Origin: Eubacteriales bacterium
GTDB lineage: Bacteria; Bacillota; Clostridia; Oscillospirales; CAG-382
Length of the DNA: 64,000 nt
Assembly (NCBI GenBank): GCA_045589515.1
Contig: JAZNPH010000090.1
Coordinates: forward strand, 5,631 to 69,630
Direction of reading: 5' to 3'
The notes under the pieces are model-generated. The model saw only the letters and a program-made list of their open reading frames with translations. It made no database searches and was not told where the DNA came from. Position 1 is the stretch's first letter. Each line of letters starts with the position of its first letter. Below are positions 29,945-46,107 of this stretch, in pieces. The translations under genes and the position numbers were made by a program.

Positions 29945-29958
29945 TTGCTTTTTGGGAA

Positions 29959-32900
29959 TTAGCCGAGCTCAGGAGCGGGCACGTAGAAGATCATGTTGTT
30001 GATGGATTCCCATGCGGGGAAGTTCTCGTAGATGTGATAACGGAACATTACATGAGCCTTCAGACGAGCGTAGTCCAGAGCACTAACCTTGCAGTCAACG
30101 TTCACGTCAGCAGCAGCCAGCTTCACACCTTCCAGAGTGTAGGTGCCAAGCACGTGGCGCTTCACGTACATGTAGTCGATAGAGTTAACCTTACCGTCGC
30201 CGTTGATATCAGCGATGACAGCAACGTTGAACTCGGTGCCGCAAGCGTCGCATACGAAGGTACAACCGGTACCAACGTACTCGTGGTCAGCCAGCTCCTG
30301 GCCGTTTCTGTAAACGGTGATGGAACCGGAGAAGTTGTTCTTGAATTCGCCAACGGTCATTCTGTCGATCTTAACAACCAGGATGTTGTTGATGAAGGCC
30401 ATGTTCAGAGCGTTGGGCTTCAAAGTGGGATAGTAAACGAAGGTGGAGGTAGTGTTACCTTCCGCGCCGCAGTTGATGCAAACCTCAACGTCGGTGGTGG
30501 GGTTGCAGCAGTTGATGCCCTCGGTGTGAACGTTCTTGTAAACGTGGCCGGAGGTGGGGATGGTAACTACCAGAGTATCGCCGCAAGCAACGCAGGTGTA
30601 GGTCCAGGTGCCTTCGGTGGTGCAGGTGGGAGCAACAAATACGCCGTTCACCAGGTCATATGCATGGCCGGTAGCGGGGATGGTCTCAACAACCTTTTCG
30701 CCGCAGAAGATGCAGACGTAGGTAGCGGAGCCGTCCTTATCGCAGGTTGCATACTCCATATCGATGAGCTCGTAGCTGTGTGCATCGGGGTTGGGATCGG
30801 TGTATCTCTCTTCGTAGGAATCGCATCCTGCGCAGTAGTAGAGATCCAGACCGGGATGCTCACAGGTAGCATCGTGGATGATGTCAACGAACTGATAATC
30901 ATGTGCGCCGGTAGCGTACAGAATCTCGGTGTAGGTATGGCCGCAGTTGTTACACATGTAGGTAACGTAGCCGTCTGCGCCGCAGGTGTTGTCAACGCGA
31001 TCGATCTCAACGTAGTCGTGGCCGAGAGCGGGAACGAAGGCGATCTTGTGGGTCTCACCGCAACCGTACTTACAGGTTACCAGAACGTAGCCCTCTTCAT
31101 CACAGGTGGGATCAACAACGTCGATGATCACAAACAAGTGGTCGGTAGCGGGAGTGTATTCTTCAGAGTAGGAATATCCGCAACGAGAGCAGTAGAAGAT
31201 GAACAGACCGGGAGTAGAGCAGGTGGGCTCTACGATGTCATAGATGAAATCATGCATCAGAGGCTCGCCTACAGTCTCAGTATAGGTAGCACCGCAATCG
31301 GTACAGATGTAGGTGTAGTAGCCTGCTTCGGTACAGGTGGGATCGGTCCAGGAGAGGATGGTCCAAGTATGCACACCGGTGGGAGCGATGTCACGATATT
31401 CTACGCAACCGCAGGTAGCACAGATTCTGTACTCCTTGCCTGCTTCATACTCGGTAGCAGCCTTCTCAACGATCCATTCGCCCCAAGTGTGGCCGAATGC
31501 CTTGTAGATCTTGTCGATTCTGTGCAGGTCGCAACGTACGCACTGAACCAGTCTGAAGCCGTCCTGATCGCAGGTAGCGGGTCTTTCAACCACGTTACCG
31601 CTGAAGTCATGGCCCAAAGCGGGAAGGTCTACAGTATACCAAGCACCACATTCACAGGTATAAGTTTCAATACCGGGTGCAAAGCAGGTGGGTTCGGTAA
31701 CTACGCACTTATAGTCGTGGGGGATCTCAACGTCCCATTCAACGATATAGCAGACCTGGCAACGTCTGGTCAGCTTACCGGTATGACCATTTTCATGCTT
31801 AACAGTGATAACCTCTTCCCAGGTATGGCCAACAGGATCTACAAAATTATCCTTGTAAGAATGATGGCAGATAGAACAGGTATAGGTGGTGTAACCTTCG
31901 TCATCACAATCGGGAGGAGTTACCACGCCACCGTCATAGTCATGATCGTGAGCGGGGATCACAACACCATTTTCAACATAGTCACAGCCGGGGATGGTAC
32001 ACCAGCCGTTCTTCAGACCGTCGGTATCGCAGGTGGGCTCGGTAACGATATCCCACTCCATGATATGGTTAACGGGAGTCAGAACAACGGTGAGGTCGCT
32101 CATAACGTTCTCGTAAGAAACGCTTGCGATGTAGTTCTCGGTGATTGCGGAACCGCCGTGGAAGTAAGGATCCTCAGCGCCGTCGCCTGCAACTACCTTC
32201 TGGGTATCGATCACGTTACCCTTGTCGTCTACGAAGGTAACGGTGTAGGTCTTGAACACTACCAGAGTCAGGGTAACGTCCAGATCGTACTTACCGGTGT
32301 AGATCTTGTTGTACTTAGTCTTAACTGCGTCTACGTAGGTCTCGATGGAGGAGAAGCCGAAAGCCTTGAGAGCCTTGGAGATTCTGTCCTCCAGCTTGGT
32401 GGAGAGAAGCTTGTTCAGAGCAGCGTCAACATAGGACTGGAAGCCCTTGGGGGAGATGCCGTTGCCCAGGATGACAGTGTAGGAACCGTCGCCATTGTAC
32501 AGCTCGCCAATGGTAACGTTCAGTCTCTCGTCAACCTCCAGAATGGAGTAAGCCTTCTTGAGGGCATCCTTCAGCTCTACGGGAAGCTTAGCCTTTGCTT
32601 CCAGGGAGAGGAGCAGCTCCTTCAGCTTGGCGGGCTTGATAGCAGCCAAGTTGAAGTCAACGCCGTATTCCTCTGCCATAGCAGCAAGAACGTAAGCGGG
32701 GATCATAGCGTTTGCATCCAGAGAAAGGATCATGGACTTCAGCTTGTCTGCGCCAACCTTAGCAAGGTCGAAGGAAACAGTCTTAGCCTTCTGGATAGCA
32801 GCCTTTACGTAAACGGAGAACAGGTTTCTCTCGTCGATCACGCGGATCATAGCCTTCAGGTCGTTGGGCTCTGCAAGATCCAGATTGAAGTGATCTGCAA

Positions 32901-34020
32901 TCTTGTTTACCAGAGACTCGAACTGAGCCTCGTAACCCAGTTTCTTTGCAACGTACTCAAGTCTCTCCAGCTTGATCTGGTCGACCAGGTCGCCCAAGGT
33001 CATAGTGTGAAGCTTGTCGCGGAGAACACCGTAGTCGTCGGTAACGTCGGAAGGCAGGAGGTACCCGAGGATCTCGTCGGTATAATCGGAGATGTCCAAG
33101 GTGCCTTCCAGATCAGCGGAGAAGATACCGTCGATCTCGGTAAAGTCGCCGTTGACCTCGACCATGTCAGCCAGCTTCTTAGCGGCGGACTTGATCTTGT
33201 TCAGAGTTGCCTCGGAGCAGTTGATCACGAAGTTCACGGGAACGTCGATCTCAACGCCGCGGCAAGAGAGGGAGAAGTTATAGGTGGCAAGGGTGTTGCC
33301 TTCCATGTTGGCGATGGTAGAGAACTCGATGGGGTTAGCCTTGTAGATCTTAACCAGCGTGCTCCAAATCTCGGAAGGATCTGCCAGATCGTAGATGGTG
33401 TAGCCGTTCACGGTTACTTCATCATACAGAAGCACTGCGCCTGCCAGCAGCTTCAAAGCGCCGAGCACGTCGTAATTCTTAACGATGCTCTTAACAGCCT
33501 CCAAAACGTTGACGTCGTCAGCTGCCTTCAGCACGAAGTTCACGCCTGCAAGGTTGCCCTGCTCATCATATACACGGTTCAGATCGAAGGGGTTCTTAAC
33601 GGTAACGCCCTCCATAGCCTCCAGAACACGGTTCAGAACGTCCTTTGCAGCCTTCTTCATGGTTGCAATGAACATTTCCTTGGCAAATTTCTTAGCTACT
33701 TCGCCGCCGGTTTCGCCCAGGTCGGGAAGCTCGCCGGTCTCAATGGATTCCTTAACGGTCTCCTTGAGCTCTTCCTGTTCCTCGGGAGGCAGGGATTCGT
33801 AGTAGTCTTCGACGGCGTCAACCTGCTCTTTAGTCAGGCCAAGCTCGTCAGCGATGTCTTTGGCTGCATCGATCTGCTCTTCGGTCAGGCCATACTTGTC
33901 CTTCAAATAGTCCCAGTCGATATCATCCGCAGCGGCGGAGACAAGAGACGCGGGAACTGCTGCAACAAGCATCACGACCAAAAGCAGAGAGCTGATCAGT
34001 CTTTTGAATACTGTCTTCAT
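29959..34020 (-). CDS. Large secreted protein: unrecognised N-terminal region, 14 His/Cys repeats, X-module and C-terminal dockerin
   Basis: Signal peptide ending in AAA; repeats H-x(8-11)-TC-x3-G-x5-CxxC; duplicated Ca-binding loops DINGDGKVNSIDY and DVNVDCKVSALDY. Confidence 0.88.
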   Translation of the reverse strand: MKTVFKRLISSLLLVVMLVAAVPASLVSAAADDIDWDYLKDKYGLTEEQIDAAKDIADELGLTKEQVDAVEDYYESLPPEEQEELKETVKESIETGELPDLGETGGEVAKKFAKEMFIATMKKAAKDVLNRVLEAMEGVTVKNPFDLNRVYDEQGNLAGVNFVLKAADDVNVLEAVKSIVKNYDVLGALKLLAGAVLLYDEVTVNGYTIYDLADPSEIWSTLVKIYKANPIEFSTIANMEGNTLATYNFSLSCRGVEIDVPVNFVINCSEATLNKIKSAAKKLADMVEVNGDFTEIDGIFSADLEGTLDISDYTDEILGYLLPSDVTDDYGVLRDKLHTMTLGDLVDQIKLERLEYVAKKLGYEAQFESLVNKIADHFNLDLAEPNDLKAMIRVIDERNLFSVYVKAAIQKAKTVSFDLAKVGADKLKSMILSLDANAMIPAYVLAAMAEEYGVDFNLAAIKPAKLKELLLSLEAKAKLPVELKDALKKAYSILEVDERLNVTIGELYNGDGSYTVILGNGISPKGFQSYVDAALNKLLSTKLEDRISKALKAFGFSSIETYVDAVKTKYNKIYTGKYDLDVTLTLVVFKTYTVTFVDDKGNVIDTQKVVAGDGAEDPYFHGGSAITENYIASVSYENVMSDLTVVLTPVNHIMEWDIVTEPTCDTDGLKNGWCTIPGCDYVENGVVIPAHDHDYDGGVVTPPDCDDEGYTTYTCSICHHSYKDNFVDPVGHTWEEVITVKHENGHTGKLTRRCQVCYIVEWDVEIPHDYKCVVTEPTCFAPGIETYTCECGAWYTVDLPALGHDFSGNVVERPATCDQDGFRLVQCVRCDLHRIDKIYKAFGHTWGEWIVEKAATEYEAGKEYRICATCGCVEYRDIAPTGVHTWTILSWTDPTCTEAGYYTYICTDCGATYTETVGEPLMHDFIYDIVEPTCSTPGLFIFYCSRCGYSYSEEYTPATDHLFVIIDVVDPTCDEEGYVLVTCKYGCGETHKIAFVPALGHDYVEIDRVDNTCGADGYVTYMCNNCGHTYTEILYATGAHDYQFVDIIHDATCEHPGLDLYYCAGCDSYEERYTDPNPDAHSYELIDMEYATCDKDGSATYVCIFCGEKVVETIPATGHAYDLVNGVFVAPTCTTEGTWTYTCVACGDTLVVTIPTSGHVYKNVHTEGINCCNPTTDVEVCINCGAEGNTTSTFVYYPTLKPNALNMAFINNILVVKIDRMTVGEFKNNFSGSITVYRNGQELADHEYVGTGCTFVCDACGTEFNVAVIADINGDGKVNSIDYMYVKRHVLGTYTLEGVKLAAADVNVDCKVSALDYARLKAHVMFRYHIYENFPAWESINNMIFYVPAPELG
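30440..32067 (-). repeat. Array of 14 degenerate ~38-aa His/Cys (putative Zn-binding) protein repeats
   Basis: Counted in the translation from HIMEWDIVTEPTC to HVYKNVHTEGINC. Confidence 0.85.
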
Positions 34021-34108
34021 AGCATCCTCACTTATATAAATTAATTTTTTTGCATAAGTTAAACCTGACCTTGTACCCCCAAAGTAAGGTCATCCTAATA
34101 CATACTCC

Positions 34109-34137
34109 ATTATATACCCTTTTTCAAAGATTGTCAA
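34109..34137 (-). promoter_or_regulatory. Perfect consensus sigma-70 promoter of the 1353-aa dockerin protein
   Basis: Minus strand TTGACA-N17-TATAAT; the leader has a TGACCTT...AAGGTCA stem. Confidence 0.85.
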
Positions 34138-34303
34138 CCTCTTTTCTAAGATTTCTTTCTTGCAAACTCGGAAATAATTACCAAAGGTTTTACCGTTTTT
34201 TTGTCAAATTCGTCATATACTCTCTTTTGCATTGCATAAACGCAGAAAAAGAACGGACGGAGCGTATCTCCATCCGTTCGTGAATTTTTTTATGCGTTTC
34301 GGG

Positions 34304-35272
34304 TTATACCCACCACATACCGGTGGGCTTGGGATCCTTGATAATAGCCTGCTTCAGGAAGTAAGCGGCCTTCTCCAAACCCTCCACGTTGGTCATAATG
34401 CTGTCCTCATGCTCGATGGACAGGATATCGTCATATCCCACAAGGCGAAGATTGCTGATGAAGTCTCTCCAATACTGCATATCATTGCCATAGCCCACGG
34501 AGCGGAACACCCAAGAGCGGTGAAGCTCGTCTGCATAGGGCTTGGTATCCAGCACGCCGTTGACAGCGGTGTTCAGGCCGTCCACCTTGGTGTCCTTGGC
34601 GTGAACGTGGTAAATCGCGTCGCCCAGAGTGCGGATGGCGGCAACGGGGTCGATCCCCTGCCAGATCAGGTGAGAGGGGTCCATGTTGGCGCCGATGAGG
34701 TTGCCCACCTCGCTGCGCAGGTGCAACAGGGTCTCGGGGTTATACACGCAGAAGCCGGGATGCATCTCCAAAGCGATCTTCTCAATGCCGTGGGCTTCGG
34801 CAAACTGCACCTCTTCCTTCCAATAAGGAACCAGCACTTCCTCCCACTGCCATTTCAGCAGATCGGAGAAATCGTTGGGCCAGGGGCAGGTAACCCAGTT
34901 GGGATACTTGGCATCCAGACTGTCGCCGGGACAGCCGGAGAAGCCGATGATCTTCTTGATCCCCAGTTTTTCGCAAAGGAGGATGGTATTTCGGAAATCC
35001 TCACGATAGCTCTCGCGAGTGGCCTTGTCGGGATGGACGGGGTTGCCGTGGCAGCTGAGGGTGTTGATGGGCAGACCGTGGGCGGCGATGGTCTCTTTGA
35101 AGGATTCCAAGGCCTTTTCGTCCTTCAGAAGAACGGCGGGGTCGCAATGGGCTTTGCCGGGATAACCGCCTGCGCCGATCTCCAATTCCTCAATACCGAT
35201 GGATTTCAGATAAGGAAGCACCTTGTCCAGCGGTTGATCGCCGAACAAAACTGCACATACACCTAATTTCAT
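34304..35272 (-). CDS. Sugar phosphate isomerase/epimerase (xylose-isomerase-like TIM barrel)
   Basis: SCHGNPVHP, ALEMHPG, DPSHLIWQG, HVHAKD, SIEHED. Confidence 0.9.
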   Translation of the reverse strand: MKLGVCAVLFGDQPLDKVLPYLKSIGIEELEIGAGGYPGKAHCDPAVLLKDEKALESFKETIAAHGLPINTLSCHGNPVHPDKATRESYREDFRNTILLCEKLGIKKIIGFSGCPGDSLDAKYPNWVTCPWPNDFSDLLKWQWEEVLVPYWKEEVQFAEAHGIEKIALEMHPGFCVYNPETLLHLRSEVGNLIGANMDPSHLIWQGIDPVAAIRTLGDAIYHVHAKDTKVDGLNTAVNGVLDTKPYADELHRSWVFRSVGYGNDMQYWRDFISNLRLVGYDDILSIEHEDSIMTNVEGLEKAAYFLKQAIIKDPKPTGMWWV

Positions 35273-35289
35273 GGAGCATTTCCTTCCTA

Positions 35290-36378
35290 TTAATTAAAGT
35301 AGTAGGGCTCACCGGTCTTGGCGGAGACGTAGATACCCTCCAGAATGCGGCTGACAACCAATGCCTGCTCGGGAAGAACGAAGGGATCGGTGTCGTTGAT
35401 CACGGCGTTGAGCCACAGACGTGCCTCGTTGTCATGGGGAGAGCCTGCGCCTGCGCCCTCGTAGAAGGCTACGCCGCCTGCGGACAGGTCGGGCTTCAGA
35501 ACGTACTGTCTGCCGTTGCGGATGCCGTTGATACGTACGCCGCCCTCCATGTCAGCACCGCCGTCGGTGCCGCAAAGGGTGGTAACAGCCTCGCGAACAT
35601 CCAGAGAGTTCAACGCCCAGCTGGATTCCAAAACCACGGTAGCGCCGTTTTCCATGACGATGAAGCCGAAGGCGGAATCCTCAACGGTAAGCTCGCCGGG
35701 CTTCCAGTCGCCCCAAGCGTTGCCGGTGGGGAACTTATCGCCCAGCTTGTGGTATACGGTACCAACGCAATACTTGGGCTTGTAGTTATCCATGCACCAC
35801 AGGGTCAAGTCAAGAGCATGGGTGCCGATATCGATGAGGGGACCGCCGCCCTGCTCGTATTCGTTCATGAACACGCCCCAAGTGGGAACGGCTCTGCGAC
35901 GAATGGCGGTAGCTTTGGCGTAGTAGATCTCGCCGAGAGTGCCGTCCTCGCATTCCTTCTTGATATACATGGAATCGGGGCGGTGGCGGTTCTGGTAGCC
36001 GATGGTCAGCTTCTTGCCGGTGCGCTTTGCGGCATCCAGCATCTTCTGTGCTTCCTCGGAGTTGATGGCCATGGGCTTTTCGCACATAACGTGCTTCCCT
36101 GCTTCCAGAGCATCTACGGTGATGAAGCTGTGGGAGCGGTTGGGGGTACAAACGTGAACCACGTCGATGGTCTCGTCCGCTAAAAGCTCCTTATAGTCAG
36201 TGCAGACCTTGGCGTCGGGGGTGCCGTACTTCTTGGCGGCCTCTTCAGCGCGGGAAAGCACCACGTCACAGAAATATACCATTTCCGCCAGGTCAGAGCA
36301 GTTCTTCAATGCGGGCATATGCTTGCCGTTGGCAATGCCGCCGCAACCGATGATACCGATTCTCAATTTCTTATCCAT
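35290..36378 (-). CDS. Gfo/Idh/MocA family oxidoreductase
   Basis: IGIIGCGGIA, CTPNRSH, HVMCEKPM, GGGPLIDIGTH. Confidence 0.93.
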   Translation of the reverse strand: MDKKLRIGIIGCGGIANGKHMPALKNCSDLAEMVYFCDVVLSRAEEAAKKYGTPDAKVCTDYKELLADETIDVVHVCTPNRSHSFITVDALEAGKHVMCEKPMAINSEEAQKMLDAAKRTGKKLTIGYQNRHRPDSMYIKKECEDGTLGEIYYAKATAIRRRAVPTWGVFMNEYEQGGGPLIDIGTHALDLTLWCMDNYKPKYCVGTVYHKLGDKFPTGNAWGDWKPGELTVEDSAFGFIVMENGATVVLESSWALNSLDVREAVTTLCGTDGGADMEGGVRINGIRNGRQYVLKPDLSAGGVAFYEGAGAGSPHDNEARLWLNAVINDTDPFVLPEQALVVSRILEGIYVSAKTGEPYYFN

Positions 36379-36399
36379 TGTAAATCTCCTTTGGATTAT

Positions 36400-36738
36400 T
36401 TAATCGCGGTAATATTTATAGTAAGCAAGGATGGTTCTTTCCTTACCTTCTACCTTATCAAAGCCCGTGAGGGTGGCTCCCTCCAAGGAAAGGAACTCCC
36501 ATGCGTGCAGTTCCGAGGCGGTGGTGACAAACAGAGTCTTGTCCCCCGAGATCACGCTGAACTCCCCTTCGAAATAGCTGAGCACGCCGCCCTTGCCGAT
36601 GACCCGCTCCACACCGTTCTCTTCCCTCTCCAGAATGTAGCGGAGAGAGCGGCCGTCCAGTTTCTTTGCCATCCACAGACGGAATTCCACACTATCGGTG
36701 TTCTTGGGCGGTTTATCTTTTTTCTTCCAGCCGAACAT
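36400..36738 (-). CDS. Conserved hypothetical protein (112 aa)
   Basis: Co-directional ORF overlapping the glycosyltransferase stop; AGGAG RBS; typical codon usage. Confidence 0.7.
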   Translation of the reverse strand: MFGWKKKDKPPKNTDSVEFRLWMAKKLDGRSLRYILEREENGVERVIGKGGVLSYFEGEFSVISGDKTLFVTTASELHAWEFLSLEGATLTGFDKVEGKERTILAYYKYYRD

Positions 36739-37684
36739 CTTTCTTCTCCTTCAGGTCGTTTTCCGTCTCCTTGGACAGGTAAATGGGACGGTGCTTGCTT
36801 TCCAGATAGGTTTTGGACAGATAGCCCCCCAAAATACCGATGGAAAACTCCAAAGCACCACCCACAAACAGGATAACGCACATCATGGACGCCCAACCGA
36901 AGGCGGAATCCACACCCAAAAGGGCGCGGATAATGACCACCAAAATGCCAATGAAGGCGGCAAAGCAGAACATAAAGCCCATCACCGAAGCGATGGCCAG
37001 GGGTGCGGTGGAGAAAGCAATGATACATTCCAGGGAATACTTGAACAGCTTCCAGAAGGAGAACTTGGTCTTCCCCGCACTGCGCTCCACGTTCTCGTAG
37101 GAGATCCACTCCGTCTCGTAGCCCACCCACTCGAAGATGCCCTTGGAGAAGCGGTTGTACTCGCAAAGGGACATGATGGAATCCGCCATACGACGGGACA
37201 TGAGACGGTAGTCTCTTGCCGCGGGCACCAATCGCACGTTGGAGATGCGGTTGATCATTTTATAAAAAACGTTTGCAAAAAAGCTTCTGATGGGAGGTTC
37301 CCCCTTGCGGGAGGAACGACGGGTACCGATGCTGTCGCACCCCTTCTCCTTCAAAAGAGCCATCATACGGGGCAGGAGGGAGGGGGGATCCTGGAGATCC
37401 GCATCCATATACACAACGTAGTCCCCGCGGGAGGCCTGCAAAAGGGCGTACATGGCGGCTTCCTTGCCGAAATTGCGGGTAAAGGAAACGTAACGGAAGC
37501 GCTCGTCCGCGGCGGCGTATTCCCGCAACAGCTTCAGAGTACCGTCCTTAGAGCCGTCGTCCGCAAAAATCACCTCAAAGGCGTATTCCGGCATGGTGTC
37601 CATCACCCGTAAGATCTCATCACGGAAAAGAGGCAGGGATTCTTCCTCGTTAAAACAAGGAACCATAACGCTGATCAGTTCCAT
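36713..37684 (-). CDS. GT2 glycosyltransferase (GtrB/CsbB-like polyprenol-phosphate glycosyltransferase)
   Basis: VPCFNEE, DDGSKD, RNFGKEAA, MDADLQDPP, two C-terminal TM helices. Confidence 0.92.
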   Translation of the reverse strand: MELISVMVPCFNEEESLPLFRDEILRVMDTMPEYAFEVIFADDGSKDGTLKLLREYAAADERFRYVSFTRNFGKEAAMYALLQASRGDYVVYMDADLQDPPSLLPRMMALLKEKGCDSIGTRRSSRKGEPPIRSFFANVFYKMINRISNVRLVPAARDYRLMSRRMADSIMSLCEYNRFSKGIFEWVGYETEWISYENVERSAGKTKFSFWKLFKYSLECIIAFSTAPLAIASVMGFMFCFAAFIGILVVIIRALLGVDSAFGWASMMCVILFVGGALEFSIGILGGYLSKTYLESKHRPIYLSKETENDLKEKKDVRLEEKR

Positions 37685-37792: not shown

Positions 37793-37821
37793 TTGACAAA
37801 GAATGCTTGCTATGTTAGAAT
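37793..37821 (+). promoter_or_regulatory. Sigma-70 promoter of the murQ - GDPD unit
   Basis: TTGACA-N17-TAGAAT with TG extension. Confidence 0.75.
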
Positions 37822-37863
37822 AAAACCAAGAAAATTCCATTTGGCAAGAGAGGCTTTGACAGC

Positions 37864-38703
37864 ATGGCTGAATTTCATACGCTGACCACGGAGCAAAAGA
37901 ATGCTTCCTCGTCACAGATCGACAAAATGAGCGCCCTTGAGATCGCAAGGTGCATCAACGAAGAGGATAAGACAGTAGCCTTTGCGGTGGAAAAGTGTCT
38001 GCCGGAGATCGGCGAAGCCATTGACTTGCTGGCAGAGGTTCTGCAGGCCGACGGACGCATCTTCTACTGCGGCGCGGGCACCTCCGGCAGACTGGGAGTG
38101 GTAGATGCCTCCGAGATCCCCCCTACCTACGGGCTGTACGGCAGAGTCATCGGGCTGATGGCGGGGGGCTACAGCGCCATCATCAATCCCGCGGAGGATG
38201 CGGAGGACAGCTTCCACAGCATCGCGGATCTGATGAAGGAGGAATACGGCTACAGTGAGAAGGATATTTTAGTGGCTGTTTCCGCCAGCGGGTCCGCAAA
38301 CTGCGTGAAGGGTGCTTTGGCCTACGCCAAGGAGCTGGGCACCAAGACCATCTGCGTCACCTGCAACAAAAACAGCGATCTGATCCCGCTGTGTGATCTT
38401 GCCATCGCGGCGGAGGTTGGTCCCGAGGTGATCAACGGCTCCACCCGCATGAAGGCGGGCACGGCGCAAAAAATGATCCTGAATATGCTGTCCACCGGCG
38501 CCATGGTGCGGTACGGCAGAGTCCGTGGGAATTACATGGCCTATATGATCCCTTCCAACCGCAAGCTGGTGGCAAGAGCCATCCGCATGATCTGCCAGAA
38601 AACGGGCTGCACTCCCGAAAAGGCAGAGGAAGCCCTGAAGCGGGCGGATAACGTCATTGCAGACGCCATGGACGCCATCGAAGCAGAAAATATATCATTA
38701 TAA
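37864..38703 (+). CDS. murQ: N-acetylmuramic acid 6-phosphate etherase
   Basis: TTEQKN, GAGTSGRLGVVDASEIPPTYG, AED, GPEVINGSTRMKAGTAQKMILNMLST. Confidence 0.92.
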   Translation: MAEFHTLTTEQKNASSSQIDKMSALEIARCINEEDKTVAFAVEKCLPEIGEAIDLLAEVLQADGRIFYCGAGTSGRLGVVDASEIPPTYGLYGRVIGLMAGGYSAIINPAEDAEDSFHSIADLMKEEYGYSEKDILVAVSASGSANCVKGALAYAKELGTKTICVTCNKNSDLIPLCDLAIAAEVGPEVINGSTRMKAGTAQKMILNMLSTGAMVRYGRVRGNYMAYMIPSNRKLVARAIRMICQKTGCTPEKAEEALKRADNVIADAMDAIEAENISL

Positions 38704-38719
38704 TATAGGGGGTACACCG

Positions 38720-41700
38720 ATGAAAATTAAAAGATTCCTTTCCGCGTTACTTACCGCCGTCATGCTTTTTGCCGTAATCGCGGCTACGCCCTTGACAAGC
38801 TCTGCGGCAGGTAACGACGACCTGATCACCATCACCTACACCAATCCCGTTATTACCGCAAACGTAGGCGATACGGTGGATCTTTCCCGCTATGCGGTGG
38901 TTACCGAGGACGGCACGGTCCTCTCTCCCGATGAGATCGATTGGAGACTACGTGACATCGTGCCGGAAACCATCGAGGTGACCGAAAAAGGAGTTCAAAC
39001 CCTTTACGCTTACTACGGAGAAATCCGTCGGGAGATCTATCTGGTCTCAAAGCTTCCGGAAGAGACGGAATACGTGCTGTATGAAAACGATTTCGACTGC
39101 ACGGTGGACGACCTCAGAGAAGAAGGCTGGAAGCTTCTGAACGCAAGCGCCATCAGCATCAGCGACGGCGTTTTCCACATGGGCAACAAGAACGGAGACT
39201 ACTACCGCGCCATTCTGCCCGAGTGGCTGGGGAACTTCGGCGATTACGCCATCTCCATGCAGGCCAGCCAAACGGACGTGCTTAACGGCTCCAGATGGTG
39301 CTCCATCGCCTACCGTATCGAAAACGCCAACAAGAATTATTATCCCTACTACCATATGTGCGTTCGCGCCAACACCACCAGCAGTACGGTGGAGTTCGCA
39401 GAGCGTACCAAGGCCAATGGGTGGAACGTGATCTATAAGACCTCTGCCAACCTGAACATGACGGATGCGGGGTACCACAACATCACGGTCAAAGCCTTTG
39501 AAAACACGGTGCAATACCTGATCGACGGTGAATCCATGCTGTTCGTCAGCGATGCAAAGGCTCATCCCAAGGGATACGTGGGCTTGATCTCCAACTACGG
39601 CTCCATGAACGTGGATTCTATCCGCATCACCGTGCAGGAGGCGGCTCCCGAGCGTCCCAAGGTAGTTCCCAAGCTGCTCAACACTGCGGAAAACCGCGGC
39701 GAGACCAATATCACAAACTACGTTTCCAACCAGGCTTACGTGGGCTTCTCCCGTCTGGAGGAGATCCTGCAAAACGAGGAGCTTCCCGCGGCAGTCTATA
39801 TCGATCTGGACGGCCACTCTCCCACCCAAGGTGATTTTGAGAGAATGCTGACGCTTTGCGCGGAAAAGAACGTGATCCCCCAGTTCAAGCTGACCGCCAA
39901 GGAACAGGTGGATAAGCTCAACGACGCCCTGAAGGCAACCAAGGTGCCCGAGGCTCTGGTGGGCTCCGCAGACGCCGAGGTGGTAAAATACGCCCGCACC
40001 AAGAACAAGGCTGTGATCCGCGGCGCATTGGATCTCACCGAGATCTCCTGGGACGTTCCCACCTCCGATGCCGATATTCACAAATATTACGATATGGCCG
40101 CAGGCGCATACGCACAGGCCATCATCCTCCCCTATCACGCCGCCACCAAGGAAGCGGTTGCCAAGCTTCAGGAATACGAGCTTGCGGTCTGGGCCTTTGG
40201 CGAGAACATCCAATCCGTTACCGAGGGTGCTCATCTGGTGGCATCCGGTGCCAACGCCGTGGTGAGCAACGATTACCAGCTGATCGCTTCCGTTCAGAAG
40301 GAGATCTTCACCGCGGCCGACTCTCTCACCCGCACTCCCGTGTGGACCGCGCACAGAGGCTATTCCACCAAGTACCCCGAAAACTCCATGGCGGCCTGTA
40401 TCGGTGCTTACGAGGTAGGCGCGGATTGCATTGAGATCGACGTACACCTCAGCGCCGACGGCGTGGTGATGGTGATGCACGACGGTTCCATCGACCGTAC
40501 CACCAACGGCACGGGTAATATCGCAAGCATGACCTGCGACCAGCTCAAGCAGTACCGCTTGAAAAACGCCAGCGGCGTTCTCACCCAGGAGGTGATCCCC
40601 ACCTTCGAGGAGATCCTGCAGGAGTTCCAAGGCAAAGACGTGAAGTTCCTCTGCGAGATCAAATCCGGCCAGGCAGGCCTTCCCAAGGCTTGCGTGGATC
40701 TGATCAAGAAGTATGAGATGGAAGACCAGGTGGTGTTCATCAGCTTCTACGCCGATCAGCTTACCGAAGCCAAGAAGCATATGAACATTTCCACCGGCTA
40801 CCTCATCGGCGCCACCGGCTTCTCCGACGGGGCAGACTATGCGGGAACCCTCAACGCTTATTACGAAAAGCAGCTGGACATTCTGAATTACCACGCCACC
40901 ATGGCCATCAACTACGGCAATCTGACGAGCGAGTTCCTGCGGGATGCCAACGACCGCGGTCTCACCCTTTGGACATGGACCTACAACCTGGGCTCTGCCG
41001 CTCAAGTCTGCAAGATGTTCTTGGCAGGTGTGAACGGCATGACCACCGACGATCCCCAATATCTGAAGCACACCGTAAAGACGATTTCCGCTCCTACGGA
41101 ATTGAAGGTGAACGTGGATAAGAAGACCCGCTTTGAGATCAACTCCCTGACCTACGGCGGCAAAGAAAAAGCCGTGACGGAGGATGCAGAGATCATTCTG
41201 CTGGAAAATGACGGCGTGATCCGCGTGGAAACGGACGGCTCCGTTTGGGGCTTGAAGCAAGGGACCGCCTCCTTCATGGTAGCCTACCAAACCAAGCTTC
41301 CCGACGGACAGACCTACACGCTTTACAGCCAGCCTATCGTGGTTGAGGTAGGCACCTTTGAGGGATTAACTCCCACGGAGGCCAGCGGCTTTACGGTAAA
41401 GGACGGGTTGCTCACCCGGGTTGAGTTAGGCTTACGGGTCTCCGATCTGGCCTCCCACTTTGTAGACTTTAAGTACGCGCAGATTTTTGACCAAAACGAA
41501 AGCTTCCTGGCTCCCGACGCGCAGATCTGCACCGGTACGCTGATCTCGCTGTACGGTGAGGTCACCCAAGTGGCAGTATCCGGCGACCTGAACGGCGATG
41601 GCAAGTGCAACGCCGTGGACTACATCCTCATGAAGCGCCATACCGCAGGGAACGAGCTTTCCAAGCTTCAAGCCGCTGCGGCCGATGTCAGCGGAGACGG

Positions 41701-41770
41701 CGAAATCCGTTCCGTGGATTACATCCGTATGAAGCGTTATTTGCTGAAAAAAGCCGACTCCCTGATGTAA
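38720..41770 (+). CDS. Secreted multidomain glycerophosphodiester phosphodiesterase with lectin-like beta-sandwich, degenerate and intact GDPD barrels, Ig-like module, X-module and C-terminal dockerin
   Basis: Signal peptide from MKIKRF; AHRG...PENS...IEIDVH...MHD...EIK catalytic set; dockerin GDLNGDGKCNAVDY...ADVSGDGEIRSVDY. Confidence 0.9.
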   Translation: MKIKRFLSALLTAVMLFAVIAATPLTSSAAGNDDLITITYTNPVITANVGDTVDLSRYAVVTEDGTVLSPDEIDWRLRDIVPETIEVTEKGVQTLYAYYGEIRREIYLVSKLPEETEYVLYENDFDCTVDDLREEGWKLLNASAISISDGVFHMGNKNGDYYRAILPEWLGNFGDYAISMQASQTDVLNGSRWCSIAYRIENANKNYYPYYHMCVRANTTSSTVEFAERTKANGWNVIYKTSANLNMTDAGYHNITVKAFENTVQYLIDGESMLFVSDAKAHPKGYVGLISNYGSMNVDSIRITVQEAAPERPKVVPKLLNTAENRGETNITNYVSNQAYVGFSRLEEILQNEELPAAVYIDLDGHSPTQGDFERMLTLCAEKNVIPQFKLTAKEQVDKLNDALKATKVPEALVGSADAEVVKYARTKNKAVIRGALDLTEISWDVPTSDADIHKYYDMAAGAYAQAIILPYHAATKEAVAKLQEYELAVWAFGENIQSVTEGAHLVASGANAVVSNDYQLIASVQKEIFTAADSLTRTPVWTAHRGYSTKYPENSMAACIGAYEVGADCIEIDVHLSADGVVMVMHDGSIDRTTNGTGNIASMTCDQLKQYRLKNASGVLTQEVIPTFEEILQEFQGKDVKFLCEIKSGQAGLPKACVDLIKKYEMEDQVVFISFYADQLTEAKKHMNISTGYLIGATGFSDGADYAGTLNAYYEKQLDILNYHATMAINYGNLTSEFLRDANDRGLTLWTWTYNLGSAAQVCKMFLAGVNGMTTDDPQYLKHTVKTISAPTELKVNVDKKTRFEINSLTYGGKEKAVTEDAEIILLENDGVIRVETDGSVWGLKQGTASFMVAYQTKLPDGQTYTLYSQPIVVEVGTFEGLTPTEASGFTVKDGLLTRVELGLRVSDLASHFVDFKYAQIFDQNESFLAPDAQICTGTLISLYGEVTQVAVSGDLNGDGKCNAVDYILMKRHTAGNELSKLQAAAADVSGDGEIRSVDYIRMKRYLLKKADSLM

Positions 41771-41780
41771 AATCACTCTC

Positions 41781-41810
41781 AAGAGAGAGCCTGCGGGCTC
41801 TCTCTTTTTT
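41781..41810 (+). terminator. Intrinsic terminator
   Basis: AAGAGAGAGCC-TGCG-GGCTCTCTCTTTTTT. Confidence 0.85.
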
Positions 41811-41862
41811 GACGGTTCATGATAAAATCCGGGCTTCATTTGGACTTTTTGTGAAAAAGCCC

Positions 41863-41891
41863 TTGCATTCCGCCGAAAGGTATTGTATAAT
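41863..41891 (+). promoter_or_regulatory. Sigma-70 promoter of the cohesin/OB-fold gene
   Basis: TTGCAT-N17-TATAAT. Confidence 0.75.
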
Positions 41892-41940
41892 GTAGTCACA
41901 AATCAATGCAAAAAAATAGCAGAAAGGAATCTTTACTTTC

Positions 41941-44496
41941 ATGAAAAGACTTACTTCTCTCATGCTGGCAGTCTTTATGGTAGTTACCATGGTGTCTGCT
42001 TCCCTTCTTACGGTTTCGGCCGCTGAGACCACTTCTGTCTCTCTGTCCGCTCCCGCTGAGGTGGAATTCACCGGGGATGCCGTAGAAGACTCCTTCCAGG
42101 TAGAAGCAAACCTGAATCTTGCCGACGGTCTCACCGCCATTGCAGGTTACGAGGTCAAGCTTACCTGGGATCCCGCTTGTCTCACCCTGTTGGAGACCGT
42201 GTTCTCCGGCGAAGGCATCACTGACCAGAAACCTGGCGAAGGCTCTCTTACTCTGGCAGCGGTCAACGCTACCGACGTGCTTTCCGGCAGACTGTTCTAC
42301 GTTTCCTTCGCGCCCATCGCGGAAGGCAACACCACCGTCTCCGTAGAGGTTCTCAGCATTGCTACCTCCACCGGTCTGATCGATGCAGAGGGCAGCGAGG
42401 TTGCCATCACCGCGGCGAAGCCCGTAGTGATCTACGAGACTCCCGAAGAGATCGTCAACGCAGCTTACGAGCTGGAGAACGGCGAGTATCTCTCCGACGG
42501 CTATAAGTACGCCCTGACCGGTGAGATCATCTCCTTCGAGTCCGTTTACAGCGAGCAGTACAAGAACGTTTCCCCCATCATCGCCGTTGAAGGCGTAGAC
42601 GGCAAGCCCATCCTGTGCTTCCGCATGAAGGGCGAGGGCGCTGACGTGATCAAGATCGGCGACACCATCACCGTTACCGGTAAGATCAAGAATTACAACG
42701 GCAAGATCGAGTTCGATTCCGGCTGTACGCTGGATTCCTACGTTCCCGGTGAGCCCGAGGTCATCATTTACGATACCCCCGAGGCAATCCTGAACGCCGC
42801 TTACCAGCTGGATACCGGCGCTACCCTTTCTGCAGGCCATCTCTACGAGCTGACCGGCGTGATCACCTCTGTCGATACCGAATACAGCGAGCAGTATGGC
42901 AACGTTACCGTTACCATTCAGGTTGGCGATATGGCCGACAAGCCGATGAAGTGCTTCCGCATGAAGGGCGAAGGCGCCGATATCATCAAGGTTGGTGACA
43001 CCATTACCGTTAAGGGTGTGATCAAGAATTACAACGGTACCGTTGAGTTCGACGCAGGTTGTACCTTGGAGGCCTACACGCAGGCTCCCGGCCACAATCA
43101 CAATTACGTTGAAGAGATCACCGTACAGCCCACCCTTTCCACCGAAGGCTCCGCTACCTACACCTGCGAATGCGGCGAATCCTACACCGAGGCTATCCCC
43201 GCTGTAAAGGTTCAGCCCAATGAGCTCGTAGCCCTTCCCGAAGGCGCTCTGGTTCTGGACTATGCAGGCTATAAGCACGATTCCTTCCACTGCATCATCG
43301 CCGGTGACAACCTGACCGTCAACGATCTGACCGCTTTGGGTAACAACGGCGCAGGCAAGGATATGAACTACTTCTACATCATCGTCGTGGATGCAGACGG
43401 CGTGGTGGCAGACTCCTGGTTTGACCTTGGCAGACCCAACGCAGTCAAGAGCGACGTGGTTTGCCCCGCAGGCGGTTACATCATCGGCTTCAACGGCAAC
43501 AAGGAAAACTACGCAGAGCTTGCCAAGATCGAAAAGGGCGCTAAGATCACCCTTTACAACGTAGACGTGGAAGCTCTCCGCGGTGTGGCAGGCAACGTAA
43601 CCGTTGAAAATGCTGGCTTCACCTACAAAAATCCCGCTAAGATCTACGAGACCGCAGAGGATATCATCAACGCGGCTTACGAGCTGGAAAACGGCGAGTA
43701 TCTGTCCGACGGCCATAAGTACACCTTGACCGGCGAGATCCTCTCCGTTGATACTGTCTACAACCCCAACTACAGCAACGTCACCGTTACCATGACCGTC
43801 GAAGGCAAGAACATCCAGTGCTACCGCATGAAGGGTGAGGGCGCCGACGTGATCAAGATCGGCGATACCATCACCGTCACCGGTAAGATCAAGAACTACA
43901 ACGGCACCATCGAGTTTGATACCGGCTGTACGCTGGAATCCTACGTTCCCGGCACCCCCGAGTTCGTGATCTACGAAACTCCCGAAGAGATCCTGCAGGA
44001 GGCATACAAGCTGGCAGACGGTGCGGTTCTTTCCGGCGGCCACAAGTATGAGCTCACCGGCGTGATCCTCTCTATCGATACCGCTTACGACGAAAAGTAC
44101 GGCAATATCTCCGTTACCATTCAGGTTGGCAATATGAGCGAGATGCCCATTCAGTGCTTCCGTTTGGCAGGCGAAGGTGCGGCAGAGCTTCAGGTTGGCG
44201 ATACCATCACCGCTAAGGGCGAGATCAAGAACTACCACGGCAAGATCGAGTTCAACACCTGCGAGCTGCTGAACGTTGTGAAGAAGCCCTCCTTTGCATT
44301 CGGCGACGTGGACGGCAACGGCAAACCCGCTATGGCCGACTACTTCAAGCTGAAGTCCTATCTGTTGGGCAAGAACGATTCCTTTGACGATGGCATGCTG
44401 GAAAGAAGCGACATCGACGGCAACGGAAAGGTCAACAAGCAGGATTACTTCAAGCTGAAATCCTTCCTGCTGGGCAAGTGGGATCCCAACGCATAA
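41941..44496 (+). CDS. Secreted scaffoldin-like protein: cohesin-like domain, four OB-fold-like repeats, Cys/His module plus shared uncharacterised module, C-terminal dockerin
   Basis: Signal peptide; cohesin-like IAGYEVKLTWDPACLTL...GRLFYVSFAP...EG; repeats LTGxI...GDTITVxGxIKNYNGxxEF; dockerin GDVDGNGK...DY / SDIDGNGKVNKQDY. Confidence 0.82.
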   Translation: MKRLTSLMLAVFMVVTMVSASLLTVSAAETTSVSLSAPAEVEFTGDAVEDSFQVEANLNLADGLTAIAGYEVKLTWDPACLTLLETVFSGEGITDQKPGEGSLTLAAVNATDVLSGRLFYVSFAPIAEGNTTVSVEVLSIATSTGLIDAEGSEVAITAAKPVVIYETPEEIVNAAYELENGEYLSDGYKYALTGEIISFESVYSEQYKNVSPIIAVEGVDGKPILCFRMKGEGADVIKIGDTITVTGKIKNYNGKIEFDSGCTLDSYVPGEPEVIIYDTPEAILNAAYQLDTGATLSAGHLYELTGVITSVDTEYSEQYGNVTVTIQVGDMADKPMKCFRMKGEGADIIKVGDTITVKGVIKNYNGTVEFDAGCTLEAYTQAPGHNHNYVEEITVQPTLSTEGSATYTCECGESYTEAIPAVKVQPNELVALPEGALVLDYAGYKHDSFHCIIAGDNLTVNDLTALGNNGAGKDMNYFYIIVVDADGVVADSWFDLGRPNAVKSDVVCPAGGYIIGFNGNKENYAELAKIEKGAKITLYNVDVEALRGVAGNVTVENAGFTYKNPAKIYETAEDIINAAYELENGEYLSDGHKYTLTGEILSVDTVYNPNYSNVTVTMTVEGKNIQCYRMKGEGADVIKIGDTITVTGKIKNYNGTIEFDTGCTLESYVPGTPEFVIYETPEEILQEAYKLADGAVLSGGHKYELTGVILSIDTAYDEKYGNISVTIQVGNMSEMPIQCFRLAGEGAAELQVGDTITAKGEIKNYHGKIEFNTCELLNVVKKPSFAFGDVDGNGKPAMADYFKLKSYLLGKNDSFDDGMLERSDIDGNGKVNKQDYFKLKSFLLGKWDPNA
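42430..44280 (+). repeat. Four ~310-bp coding repeats (start about 42430, 42766, 43642, 43969) arranged A-B-insert-A'-B'
   Basis: Near-identical DNA such as CGCATGAAGGGCGAGGGCGCTGACGTGATCAAGATCGGCGA recurs; repeats 1 and 3 share YELENGEYLSDG, repeats 2 and 4 share GHxYELTGVI...TIQVG. Confidence 0.92.
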
Positions 44497-44586
44497 AGAT
44501 CATTTACAAATAGTCCAAATGGGGCTGTTGCCATGGCTGTGCCATTTGCAGCAGCCCCTCTTTGATACAAAAAGGAGATTTCCCAT

Positions 44587-46107
44587 ATGAAAGCAAAAAG
44601 AACCCTTTGTTTCTGTCTGCTGTTCACCTTCGCCCTGCTGATGCTGGCGGGTTGCAACACGCAAGGTGCGGAAAGCTCCGGCGAGCCATCCGCTACCCCC
44701 TCCGCTCCCGAGGTGAGTGACGAGGTTTCGAAGAACGACGACAGATTTGTGGAGACGGATGAATTCCAAGGCAAGACCATCAAGGTGTTCACCGCGGCCT
44801 TCAACGATGCTTACGTCACCGAGATCGGAGACAATTCTCAAAACGAAAACTGTGCAGAAGCGCTTTCCGTGGCCATCAAGGAGCGCACCGAGGCGGTGGA
44901 GGATTCCTACGGCGTCACCATCGAAGAAGAGATCATGATCGATCCCAAGCGTTACGGCGGTACCTTCCTGGCGGCGGTCCGTGAATTCGGATACTCCGGC
45001 ACAGGGGATTACGACATTCTGTATCCCTGTCTTCTGGACGCAGGTACCATGGCGGCGGAAGGGCTGTTGATCGACCTTTCCAACGCTCCCGGTATCCGCA
45101 TCCAAAACTCCTGGTGGGATCAGACCTTTATTTCCGACACCGCCATTGGCAACTGCACCTATTACCTCACCGGCGACATCGGCTTACGTGCCAAGAATGC
45201 CGCAGGCTGTCTGTACTTCAACAAGAAGCTGATGGACGACGCGGGGATGGAATATCCCTACGAATTGGTCCGCAACAAGCAGTGGACCATCGAAAAGATC
45301 CTTGAGCTGATCAAGCAGGCGGATCTCAGCGAGGACTTGGACAAGGACGGCCAGATCACCTACCATGATATGTACGGCTGGGCGGGCCAGAACGGCGATA
45401 TGCAGAAGCTGTTCTACGCCGCAGGGGAACGCATTGCCACGGTTGACGATGCGGGCGTGCCCTATATTTCCATTTACAACGAAAGAAGCGCCAAGGTGAT
45501 AGATTCCATTTTGGATCTTCTGCAGGACAGCGAGGATTACGTTTGCGGCGACGATTACTTCAACGAATCCTCCACTCCCATGACGTTGCTTTTGGATTCC
45601 TTCAAGGCGGATCAATGTCTGTTCTATTCCGGCGGTATGGAGGACGCATTGAAGCTGGGAGATATGCAGAGCGATTTCGGTATCCTGCCCTCTCCCCTGT
45701 TCGATGAGACCCAGGAGCAGTATTACACCCAGGTTGGTGCTTGGTCTGCCAACGCTTACTGCATCCCCTACGGACTGGATGAGGAAAGATCCTACCGTGC
45801 ACAGGTGATTCTGGATGCACTGGGCGCTTACTCCGTGGAATCCGTGGCCACCGCTTATTACGACGTGGTTCTGCAGTATCAGAAGCTCCGTACCGACGAC
45901 GACGTGGAAATGCTGGAGCTGATCTTCGATTGCGCCGGTGCTGATCTCGGTGCGGTTTACCGCGTGGGCGGATTGTCCAACATGCTCACTCAGCTCATCG
46001 CAAAGCCCAAGGGCTCCTTTGCTTCCAGCTACGATGCATTGGAAAGTGCCGCCAAGGCAGAGATGGATGCGTTGATCGAGACCTTCAATCAGAGAGAACA
46101 AGAATAA
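44587..46107 (+). CDS. Extracellular solute-binding lipoprotein (orphan, no permease alongside)
   Basis: Lipobox LAGC; WWDQ, YFNKKL...PYELVRNKQWT, DLDKDG loop, DFGILPSP, as in clostridial family-1-like SBPs. Confidence 0.82.
   Translation: MKAKRTLCFCLLFTFALLMLAGCNTQGAESSGEPSATPSAPEVSDEVSKNDDRFVETDEFQGKTIKVFTAAFNDAYVTEIGDNSQNENCAEALSVAIKERTEAVEDSYGVTIEEEIMIDPKRYGGTFLAAVREFGYSGTGDYDILYPCLLDAGTMAAEGLLIDLSNAPGIRIQNSWWDQTFISDTAIGNCTYYLTGDIGLRAKNAAGCLYFNKKLMDDAGMEYPYELVRNKQWTIEKILELIKQADLSEDLDKDGQITYHDMYGWAGQNGDMQKLFYAAGERIATVDDAGVPYISIYNERSAKVIDSILDLLQDSEDYVCGDDYFNESSTPMTLLLDSFKADQCLFYSGGMEDALKLGDMQSDFGILPSPLFDETQEQYYTQVGAWSANAYCIPYGLDEERSYRAQVILDALGAYSVESVATAYYDVVLQYQKLRTDDDVEMLELIFDCAGADLGAVYRVGGLSNMLTQLIAKPKGSFASSYDALESAAKAEMDALIETFNQREQE

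Follow-up and report, generated by a model that had tools for sequence, protein, structure and literature searches.

Assembly of secreted proteins through cohesin and dockerin modules is usually taken as a mark of fibre or starch degradation. A close described system is that of Ruminococcus bromii, a non-cellulolytic gut member of the Clostridia with ~26 dockerin proteins and a few small scaffoldins. Its dockerins are carried by peptidases, leucine-rich repeat (LRR) proteins and functionally uncharacterised proteins; general anchoring at the surface falls to one cohesin, the dockerins of peptidases and LRR proteins are bound by one cohesin, and one enzyme combines a cohesin with a dockerin (Ze et al. 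2015, PMC4611034, cited throughout for part of its text). In the same part of that report, self-recognition of the R. bromii protein Amy4 is described and its head-to-tail chaining proposed. For ruminococci, the sections of PMC13463774 drawn on here describe monovalent adaptors as well as cohesins that are invisible to sequence searches and were found by structure only. R. flavefaciens FD-1 has transglutaminase-like, LRR and peptidase dockerin proteins, and its dockerin groups correlate with cargo (PMC2930009, cited for part of its text). Here we describe a locus from a family of uncultured gut Clostridia that uses cohesin–dockerin assembly without fibre- or starch-degrading enzymes. The locus lies in a stretch of 64,000 nt of contig JAZNPH010000090.1 of an Eubacteriales bacterium (G000:C90:5631-69630, called the window below); the genome is a 2.40-Mb draft, 98% complete. 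The window encodes three secreted dockerin proteins, one of them an enzyme with a glycerophosphodiesterase (GDPD) barrel next to murQ, another (P0001) a protein with a cohesin-like start.

With modest confidence, we read the window as holding parts of a general, non-cellulosomal cohesin–dockerin surface display, including a GDPD enzyme for scavenging or recycling of envelope material and a monovalent adaptor with OB folds. The window genes are not a self-contained three-enzyme machine. Judging from gene order in relatives, murQ and the GDPD gene are an old gene pair and form the core of the locus; the adaptor gene, with a predicted promoter of its own, appears to have been added directly downstream in one subclade of the genus. 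The features needed for the argument are as follows (promoter and terminator calls are predictions from a consensus scan and from reading of intergenic DNA).

29959-34020, minus strand: P0002, secreted dockerin-bearing protein, 1353 aa (Pfam; signal peptide by eye)
37793-37821, plus strand: promoter-like site upstream of murQ, 11/12, with TG (consensus scan)
37864-38703, plus strand: murQ, N-acetylmuramic acid (MurNAc) 6-phosphate etherase (NCBIfam)
38720-41770, plus strand: GDPD-dockerin protein, secreted, 1016 aa from ATG; open reading frame (ORF) from 38657 (Pfam)
41781-41812, plus strand: predicted intrinsic terminator after the GDPD gene, 11-bp stem, 4-nt loop, U6, -20.5 kcal/mol, z -4.2
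41863-41891, plus strand: predicted promoter of the cohesin gene, TTGCAT-17-TATAAT with TG (extended -10), 11/12 (intergenic DNA read)
41941-44496, plus strand: P0001, putative monovalent adaptor scaffoldin, 851 aa (Pfam, AlphaFold2 (AF2), Foldseek)
42415-42744, 42751-43080, 43627-43947 and 43954-44280, plus strand: OB repeats of P0001, ~108 aa each, in two pairs

Dockerins were scored with Pfam Dockerin_1 (PF00404, cut-off 22.9 bits). An earlier note on this DNA, made from the sequence alone, had proposed that the three proteins end in dockerins, and all of them do: P0002 scores 54.6 bits (residues 1270-1324; 30049-30213), the GDPD protein 50.2 bits (residues 976-1030; 41582-41746) and P0001 32.1 bits (residues 788-844; 44302-44472). 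Both D-x-[ND]-x-[DN]-G calcium-binding loops are visible in each dockerin, and a signal peptide was read by eye at each N-terminus. Further claims of that note hold equally: GDPD is the only catalytic Pfam domain among the three proteins, and neither Pfam nor NCBIfam finds a glycoside hydrolase domain in them.

A whole-genome scan, which the note had suggested as a check, gave 26 Dockerin_1 matches in 26 ORFs, 3 of them borderline, and recovered the same three places in the window. The partners of the dockerins are listed below.

BspA-type LRR_5: 6 ORFs, 2 of them giants with Peptidase_S8
Peptidoglycan hydrolases: 4 ORFs (Amidase_3, GH73 twice, GH25)
MORN: 2 ORFs
Cys-rich repeats only: 2 ORFs
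Transglutaminase-like: 1 ORF
F5/8 type C: 1 ORF
CotH: 1 ORF
GDPD: 1 ORF
Cohesin/OB protein (P0001): 1 ORF
No other domain: 7 ORFs

Cellulases and hemicellulases do not dominate this set. No cellulase, hemicellulase or amylase domain was found on any of the 26 dockerin ORFs, and GH5 and GH9 have no match in the 98%-complete genome. The four GH13 genes of the genome all lie outside the dockerin ORFs. The genome therefore shows neither the dockerin-borne cellulases or hemicellulases that define a cellulosome nor the dockerin-borne GH13 amylases that define an amylosome. Dockerins are carried by both GH73 enzymes of the genome (2/2). The two giant secreted proteins, of 4507 aa (G000:C3:4067-17587) and 3370 aa (G000:C36:15372-25481), combine a subtilase, 19-24 LRR_5 units and a class-B dockerin. 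The Amidase_3-dockerin protein (256 aa, G000:C54:510-1280) has its amidase domain at the very start and no signal peptide; its gene is flanked by an amidohydrolase gene and a likely EF-P gene, with no phage genes. Pairs or triplets of dockerin genes occur also on contigs C4, C36, C43, C48, C50 and C69, and clustering of dockerin genes is therefore not special to the window.

The dockerins fall by sequence into three classes. Class A, with a DYxxLK motif, includes those of P0002, the GDPD protein, the amidase, both GH73 enzymes and the GH25 enzyme. Class A', with DYFKLKSYLLGK, is found only in P0001 and in a 732-aa protein, and the short class B in the S8-LRR giants, the transglutaminase and several LRR proteins. 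The genome also offers potential sockets: four scaffoldin-like proteins, from contigs C45 and C46, are matched by Pfam Cohesin, with some of the matches falling short of the cut-off.

C45:4706-5938: scaffoldin, 2 cohesin matches, C-terminal transmembrane helix
C45:35670-37619: scaffoldin, 2 cohesins, C-terminal transmembrane helix
C45:34436-35692: scaffoldin, weak cohesin match, C-terminal transmembrane helix
C46:1-867: scaffoldin, weak cohesin match, Pro/Ser/Glu repeat linker, cut by the contig end

Anchored cohesin proteins, as scaffoldin-based surface display calls for, are thus present in the genome that carries the dockerins. The three C45 scaffoldins have acidic Ser/Glu-rich linkers and two of them a cadherin-like domain; an Amidase_3 gene (C45:6782-7330) directly follows the scaffoldin gene C45:4706-5938.

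Conservation was followed in 151 genomes of the family (15 genera; 81 genomes of high quality). Dockerin_1 matches occur in 147 of the 151 genomes and in all 81 high-quality ones, mostly with 10 to >39 per genome, so that cohesin–dockerin display is a trait of the lineage and not a peculiarity of the locus. The whole layout of the locus is present in a near relative. In all five genus mates whose stretches were fetched (5/5), a GT2 glycosyltransferase gene, divergent from murQ, is followed by murQ, the GDPD-dockerin gene and a gene for a protein with cohesin, variable middle and dockerin (Coh-X-Doc). The murQ products are 79-96% identical to that of the window and the GDPD proteins 54-78%.

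The murQ gene scores 331.7 with NCBIfam PRK12570 (cut-off 255) and 325.5 with PRK05441 (cut-off 168); against the equivalog TIGR00274 its score is 301.6, just below the cut-off of 302. MurQ is the cytoplasmic MurNAc-6-phosphate etherase. The earlier note had placed murQ immediately upstream of the GDPD gene, and the GDPD start indeed lies 16 nt past the murQ end, preceded by a GGGGG ribosome-binding site and with no hairpin between the two genes. They are the only tight pair among the genes of the dockerin locus and, as read from the DNA, are apparently co-transcribed.

The product of the second gene of this pair consists of a Sec signal peptide, a ConA/LamG-like region (matched by PF06439 in some orthologues), an alpha/beta region, the GDPD barrel (40352-41059; PF03009, 128 bits vs cut-off 23.6), a C-terminal beta region and the dockerin. 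The N-terminal catalytic motif aligns position by position with PDB 2pz0; with H-R-G, E-x-D and H-D, which we take to be the catalytic GDPD residues, the barrel is apparently intact. Among solved structures, ordinary GDPDs and phage GP-PDE proteins stand nearest to it. About 30 database clusters share the 1015-1040-aa GDPD-dockerin architecture, all from metagenome-assembled genomes of Clostridia and all unnamed or 'hypothetical'. The genome has four GDPD genes, and a dockerin is found on the one at 38720 only. A second GDPD-family gene of the window (63644-64000; G000:C90:69274-69948; 543-aa ORF, 123 bits) lies ~17 kb downstream and extends past the right edge of the window; no dockerin match was reported for it.

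The GDPD core (residues 1 to ~880) was found in 86 of the 151 genomes and in 9 of the 15 genera; the dockerin part is present in the orthologues of some genera and absent from those of others. A gain of this dockerin within the genus of the window was considered and rejected, as genera g6, g8 and g12 also have matches over the full length, dockerin included. In 43 of the 86 genomes murQ stands immediately upstream of the core on the same strand, in five genera (g1, 18 genomes; g2, 9; g6, 9; g8, 6; g12, 1). Coordinates were compared by hand across profile-search results for this adjacency and for the one with the adaptor gene discussed below; the genomes are kin, and the counts are not independent events.

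The N-terminal part of P0001, which had been noted as cohesin-like, follows a typical Sec signal peptide (module at residues 28-165; 42022-42435). Pfam Cohesin (PF00963) does not match residues 28-170 even at E<=10, and a genome scan with this profile at E<=1 omits the module. A phmmer search with the module against 1.84 billion representatives returned 25 matches in all; of nine distant ones tested, eight contain Pfam Cohesin, several being scaffoldins with 6-9 cohesin copies, and in the close relatives the module is always N-terminal, behind a near-identical signal peptide. Cohesins are flattened beta-sandwiches of nine strands; the AF2 model (from an alignment of 12 sequences) has 11 strands, with pLDDT 92 and pTM 0.83. 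Foldseek gave 141 PDB matches at E<=0.001; among the matches listed, all are cohesins except for a CLIPPER adhesin domain at rank 36, and the best are non-cellulosomal cohesins of C. perfringens (E ~1e-8, TM 0.74-0.80). A profile of 10 orthologous modules run against PDB has cohesins as its top 5 matches, weak ones (E 0.03-0.25). Over five orthologues 43 residues of the module are invariant, while the remainder of the protein is reshuffled. Since both the fold matches and the remote sequence matches are cohesins, we assign the module as a divergent cohesin by modelled fold and remote homology; as to the generic Ig fold that the note had named as the alternative, the fold comparison favours cohesin. 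Complex prediction for this cohesin, two calcium ions and the GDPD dockerin scored 0.00 in 2 runs, without controls, and counts neither way.

The rest of P0001 consists of two pairs of OB repeats, separated by one Cys-rich repeat and one further domain (residues 418-565, with no usable match in a protein-atlas search), and of the dockerin. PF01336 matches one of the four OB repeats (53.2 bits vs cut-off 27); the AF2 model of an OB repeat (pLDDT 96) resembles most closely, among PDB structures, the anticodon-binding OB domains of LysRS. By family and model, the repeats belong to the nucleic-acid-binding type; characterised proteins use OB folds of the PF01336 family to bind nucleic acids. The repeat has more than 1100 relatives, mostly non-catalytic secreted or surface proteins of Clostridia, one of them named as LPXTG-anchored.

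The profile of the P0001 cohesin matches 14 of the 151 genomes, all from the genus of the window, and in all 14 the cohesin gene lies directly downstream of the GDPD-dockerin orthologue; in one of them (G094) the copy adjoining the GDPD-dockerin gene is the weaker of the cohesin matches. At six loci sampled outside this set (in genera g6, g8 and g12 and in one genus mate; one locus is cut by a contig end), no such cohesin ORF follows the GDPD gene (6/6). In the fetched genus mates the Coh-X-Doc protein is either 797-1218 aa long with 2-5 OB repeats or, at 271 aa, reduced to cohesin and dockerin. Minimal proteins of 194-300 aa, with signal peptide, P0001-type cohesin and dockerin, stand behind the GDPD gene in several members of the genus; such minimal cohesin-dockerin loci are listed on the next line.

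G120:C115:26939-27523, G119:C74:3605-4189, G080:C22, G111:C12, G132:C66, G147:C17, G138:C40, G094:C27; P0124

Both the terminator at 41781-41812 and the promoter at 41863-41891, the only extended -10 TTGCAT-17-TATAAT site in the window, were missed by the consensus scan and seen on reading of the DNA. A single operon from murQ to the lipoprotein gene downstream of P0001 was considered and rejected on account of these two predicted elements. The dockerin genes as a set do not form a single operon either, given the predicted terminators and promoters between them.

How the parts might work together can be outlined as follows. All three dockerin proteins would be exported by Sec, and their calcium-binding dockerins would plug into the cohesins of the C45 and C46 scaffoldins or into that of the adaptor. 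P0001 itself would dock through its class-A' dockerin, leaving its cohesin as an extra socket for a class-A dockerin, the most plausible partner being the neighbouring GDPD enzyme. The OB folds could hold a polyanionic polymer (extracellular DNA or RNA, possibly a teichoic-acid-like polymer) near the cell, and the GDPD enzyme would cleave glycerophosphodiester bonds of deacylated phospholipids or glycerol-phosphate polymers. Because the GDPD gene is constantly paired with murQ, the material would be envelope, the cell's own or foreign, that is recycled or scavenged.

Several points weigh against this reading. Every binding pair and every substrate in it is inferred. The GDPD dockerin is an ordinary class-A dockerin, common to ~15 other proteins, and no feature of its sequence marks the adaptor as its partner; as a predicted terminator and promoter separate the GDPD gene from the cohesin gene, the two may be expressed independently. 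The substrates of the GDPD enzyme are not readable from sequence, and nucleic-acid binding by the OB folds is presumed from their family. The middle of the adaptor ranges from nothing to 4-5 OB repeats between genomes, so the conserved pairing does not depend on the OB folds. Adjacency of murQ and the GDPD gene fails in 43 of the 86 genomes, where the two are on different contigs, the GDPD match is a paralogue or no murQ match was found; many of these genomes are fragmented or contain paralogues. Finally, the reading assigns no function to P0002 or to the downstream lipoprotein.

Among the alternatives, the one that survives best, while still unlikely in our view, is a dedicated surface complex (a 'murosome') that dismantles foreign bacterial envelopes, in which peptidoglycan hydrolases, the GDPD enzyme and an adaptor binding DNA or teichoic acid would act together, the products being taken up and fed to MurQ. 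Peptidoglycan hydrolases make up four of the 26 dockerin ORFs (Amidase_3, two GH73, one GH25), the dockerin-bearing GDPD has its gene paired with murQ in 43/86 genomes, the OB folds are of nucleic-acid type and plant-fibre enzymes are absent (GH5 and GH9 searched). Moreover, no TagB/TagF-type glycerophosphotransferase (PF04464) was found in the genome, so poly-glycerol-phosphate wall teichoic acid, if a substrate, would have to come from other organisms. The dockerins on both GH73 enzymes, however, fit autolysins of the cell itself tethered by dockerins; most of the 26 ORFs are not envelope-degrading (LRR, MORN, transglutaminase, CotH, F5/8C, nine without assigned domain), no dockerin-bearing nuclease is seen among them, the window genes are separate transcription units and the neighbourhood has no MurNAc transporter or kinase.

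This is also where the proposal of the earlier note, with the three proteins as parts of a multi-enzyme complex for teichoic acids, phospholipid head groups and perhaps nucleic acids of dead cells, loses ground. A single dedicated complex does not agree with separate transcription units and different dockerin classes, nor a locus-specific one with a display found family-wide (147/151) and a cargo that in this genome consists mostly of LRR proteins, proteases and proteins without assigned function. The substrate part of the proposal survives to a degree, with four dockerin-bearing peptidoglycan hydrolases and OB folds of nucleic-acid type in its favour, while both GH73 enzymes fit housekeeping autolysins equally. 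A complex for phosphodiester-rich envelope material may exist, but the data do not favour it in particular: tethered autolysins and recycling of the own envelope account for these facts as well, and the three window proteins are not a unit.

We give a still lower probability to a more specific form, in which the GDPD protein would be a new cell-wall phosphodiesterase that acts on peptidoglycan-linked polymers or fragments, for example on the phosphodiester tying teichoic-type polymers to C6 of MurNAc, scaffolded in a wall-harvesting 'murosome' with GH73, GH25, the amidase and the polyanion-binding OB adaptor. Just as doubtful is the possibility that P0001 has no tie to the GDPD enzyme and serves as an adhesin or matrix protein, one that chains through its own dockerin or a sister dockerin, binds biofilm DNA with its OB folds and has kept its site by descent. 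Its own predicted promoter and the terminator behind the GDPD gene suit this possibility, as do the minimal 235-300-aa cohesin-dockerin proteins at the same position in the genus, the restriction of class A' to two members in the genome and the >1100 mostly non-catalytic surface relatives of its OB repeats, one named as LPXTG-anchored; the self-recognition of Amy4, as described in the cited part of PMC4611034, offers a precedent. Against it, adjacency to the GDPD gene holds in 14/14 genomes despite divergence of the GDPD protein to 44% identity, which is long for a neutral neighbourhood, though the genomes are kin. We regard it as very improbable that P0001 is mere dockerin-borne cargo whose N-terminal module, a generic beta-sandwich, has lost dockerin binding: the lack of a Pfam Cohesin match and the 25 relatives among 1.84 billion representatives would suit it, but the listed fold matches (bar the CLIPPER domain at rank 36) and the remote sequence matches are cohesins, and the module is kept N-terminal with 43 invariant residues over five orthologues while the rest is reshuffled.

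The surroundings of P0002 and the region downstream of P0001 contain the following features.

29686-34044, plus strand: 1452-aa ORF antisense to P0002
34109-34137, minus strand: sigma-70-like promoter of P0002, 12/12 consensus (consensus scan)
34251-34279, minus strand: terminator-like hairpin closing the upstream TIM-barrel gene (consensus scan)
34304-35272, minus strand: xylose-isomerase-like TIM barrel, cytoplasmic (family search)
35290-36378, minus strand: GFO/IDH/MocA oxidoreductase, cytoplasmic (family search)
36713-37684, minus strand: GT2 polyprenyl-phosphate glycosyltransferase, PgfS-like but below cut-off (family search)
44587-46107, plus strand: lipoprotein, 506 aa, possibly a divergent solute-binding protein (lipobox by eye)
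46114-46141, plus strand: strong terminator hairpin with U-run after the lipoprotein gene
46249-46278, plus strand: next promoter-like site, upstream of a 639-aa gene (consensus scan)

With its own predicted promoter and flanking terminators, the P0002 gene is read as a separate transcription unit. Its product has a typical Sec signal peptide and then a lineage-restricted region of ~600 aa; relatives of these N-terminal ~600 aa form eight clusters only, seven of which have a dockerin. Next come at least 10 Cys-rich repeats, each of ~40 aa (residues 664-1146). Copies of this repeat (C-x2-4-[DE]G-x-C-x-C, then GH) are found in several of the genome's dockerin proteins, such as P0001 (residues ~385-420) and G000:C68:42830-43705, and Pfam gives only spurious zinc-finger-like matches to it. 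The plus-strand ORF 29686-34044, which exceeds in length the real gene beneath it, has no Pfam match and is therefore considered a shadow ORF. The GT2 gene is divergent from murQ, an arrangement kept in relatives.

A further hairpin lies 3' of the P0001 gene. Downstream of it an orphan solute-binding lipoprotein had been proposed: the lipobox protein is there, and its solute-binding nature is only a weak lead. The 506-aa sequence has no Pfam, NCBIfam or PDB sequence match, and SBP_bac_1/8 occurs in just 10-14% of the members of its Atlas neighbours. It is 84-88% identical in genus mates, where the gene was seen in three of the five fetched stretches, those that reached its position. The 639-aa protein (46312-48231, plus strand), behind its own promoter-like site, is 93% identical in a near relative; Pfam and NCBIfam yield only faint six-hairpin glycosidase hints (E ~0.02) for it and no match for a 616-aa protein (49382-51232). 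Elsewhere in the window, a 1393-aa ORF (10985-15166, plus strand) has no Pfam match at E<=1e-5, and a 1027-aa protein (17629-20712) has two BcrAD_BadFG stretches and DUF2229, as in CoA-enzyme activases.

Three features are new here: GDPD and both GH73 enzymes of the genome as dockerin cargo, a cohesin-dockerin adaptor whose gene keeps its place after a single cargo gene and which is OB-loaded in this genome, and the pairing of murQ with GDPD across genera. In the literature searched, no paper links dockerins with glycerophosphodiesterases or with teichoic acid degradation, though the supplements of PMC4611034 and PMC13463774 may list similar cargo; the terms 'lysozyme' and 'phosphodiesterase' are absent from the main text of the FD-1 paper (PMC2930009). 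Cohesins of the P0001 type are a class overlooked by standard hidden Markov models. Through the murQ–GDPD pair, an extracellular phosphodiesterase becomes linked to the breakdown of MurNAc; should the two genes serve one pathway, cell-wall recycling or scavenging in anaerobic Firmicutes would gain a step. If the 'murosome' were true, cellulosome-like machines would have a third substrate class besides plant fibre and starch.

Compared with described systems one by one, the best structural matches of the P0001 cohesin, the C. perfringens cohesins (PDB 2jh2, 2vo8, 2w1n and 2o4e), are likewise part of proteins unrelated to cellulose. They share just 13-20% sequence identity with it, and the partner domains in the window genome are ordinary Dockerin_1 domains, whereas the C. 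perfringens modules sit in GH84 and GH33 enzymes and pair with a distinct dockerin-like partner. GlpQ of B. subtilis is a secreted GDPD and a teichoic-acid exo-hydrolase; PDB 5t91, which we take to be its structure, is among the structural-database matches of the window GDPD. With GlpQ and the phage GP-PDE tail proteins (9euf) the window enzyme shares the GDPD barrel, the conserved catalytic motif and an extracellular setting. Unlike such secreted GDPDs, it is ~4 times larger, has ConA-like and other domains, is predicted to be dockerin-anchored and has its gene paired with murQ.

R. flavefaciens FD-1, unlike the organism studied here, is cellulolytic, with many of its dockerin proteins bearing glycoside hydrolases, as far as the cited part of PMC2930009 describes them. 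The likeness to the R. bromii amylosome, in the cited part of PMC4611034, is closer: 26 dockerin ORFs, few scaffoldins, LRR and peptidase cargo and one protein with both cohesin and dockerin. The C45 scaffoldins have transmembrane helices, while sortase-mediated attachment is described for an R. bromii scaffoldin (same part of PMC4611034). Unlike in the amylosome, the amylases of the window genome carry no dockerin and the cargo includes GDPD and both GH73 enzymes.

P0001 can also be set beside the monovalent adaptors of ruminococcal cellulosomes, such as those of the ScaC type. It is like them in joining one cohesin with a dockerin of another type, an arrangement thought to switch types or to extend the complex (PMC13463774, in the sections cited). 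It differs from them in that its host has no fibre-degrading enzymes, its gene is tied to a phosphodiesterase gene rather than to a sca cluster, and four OB folds lie between its cohesin and its dockerin.

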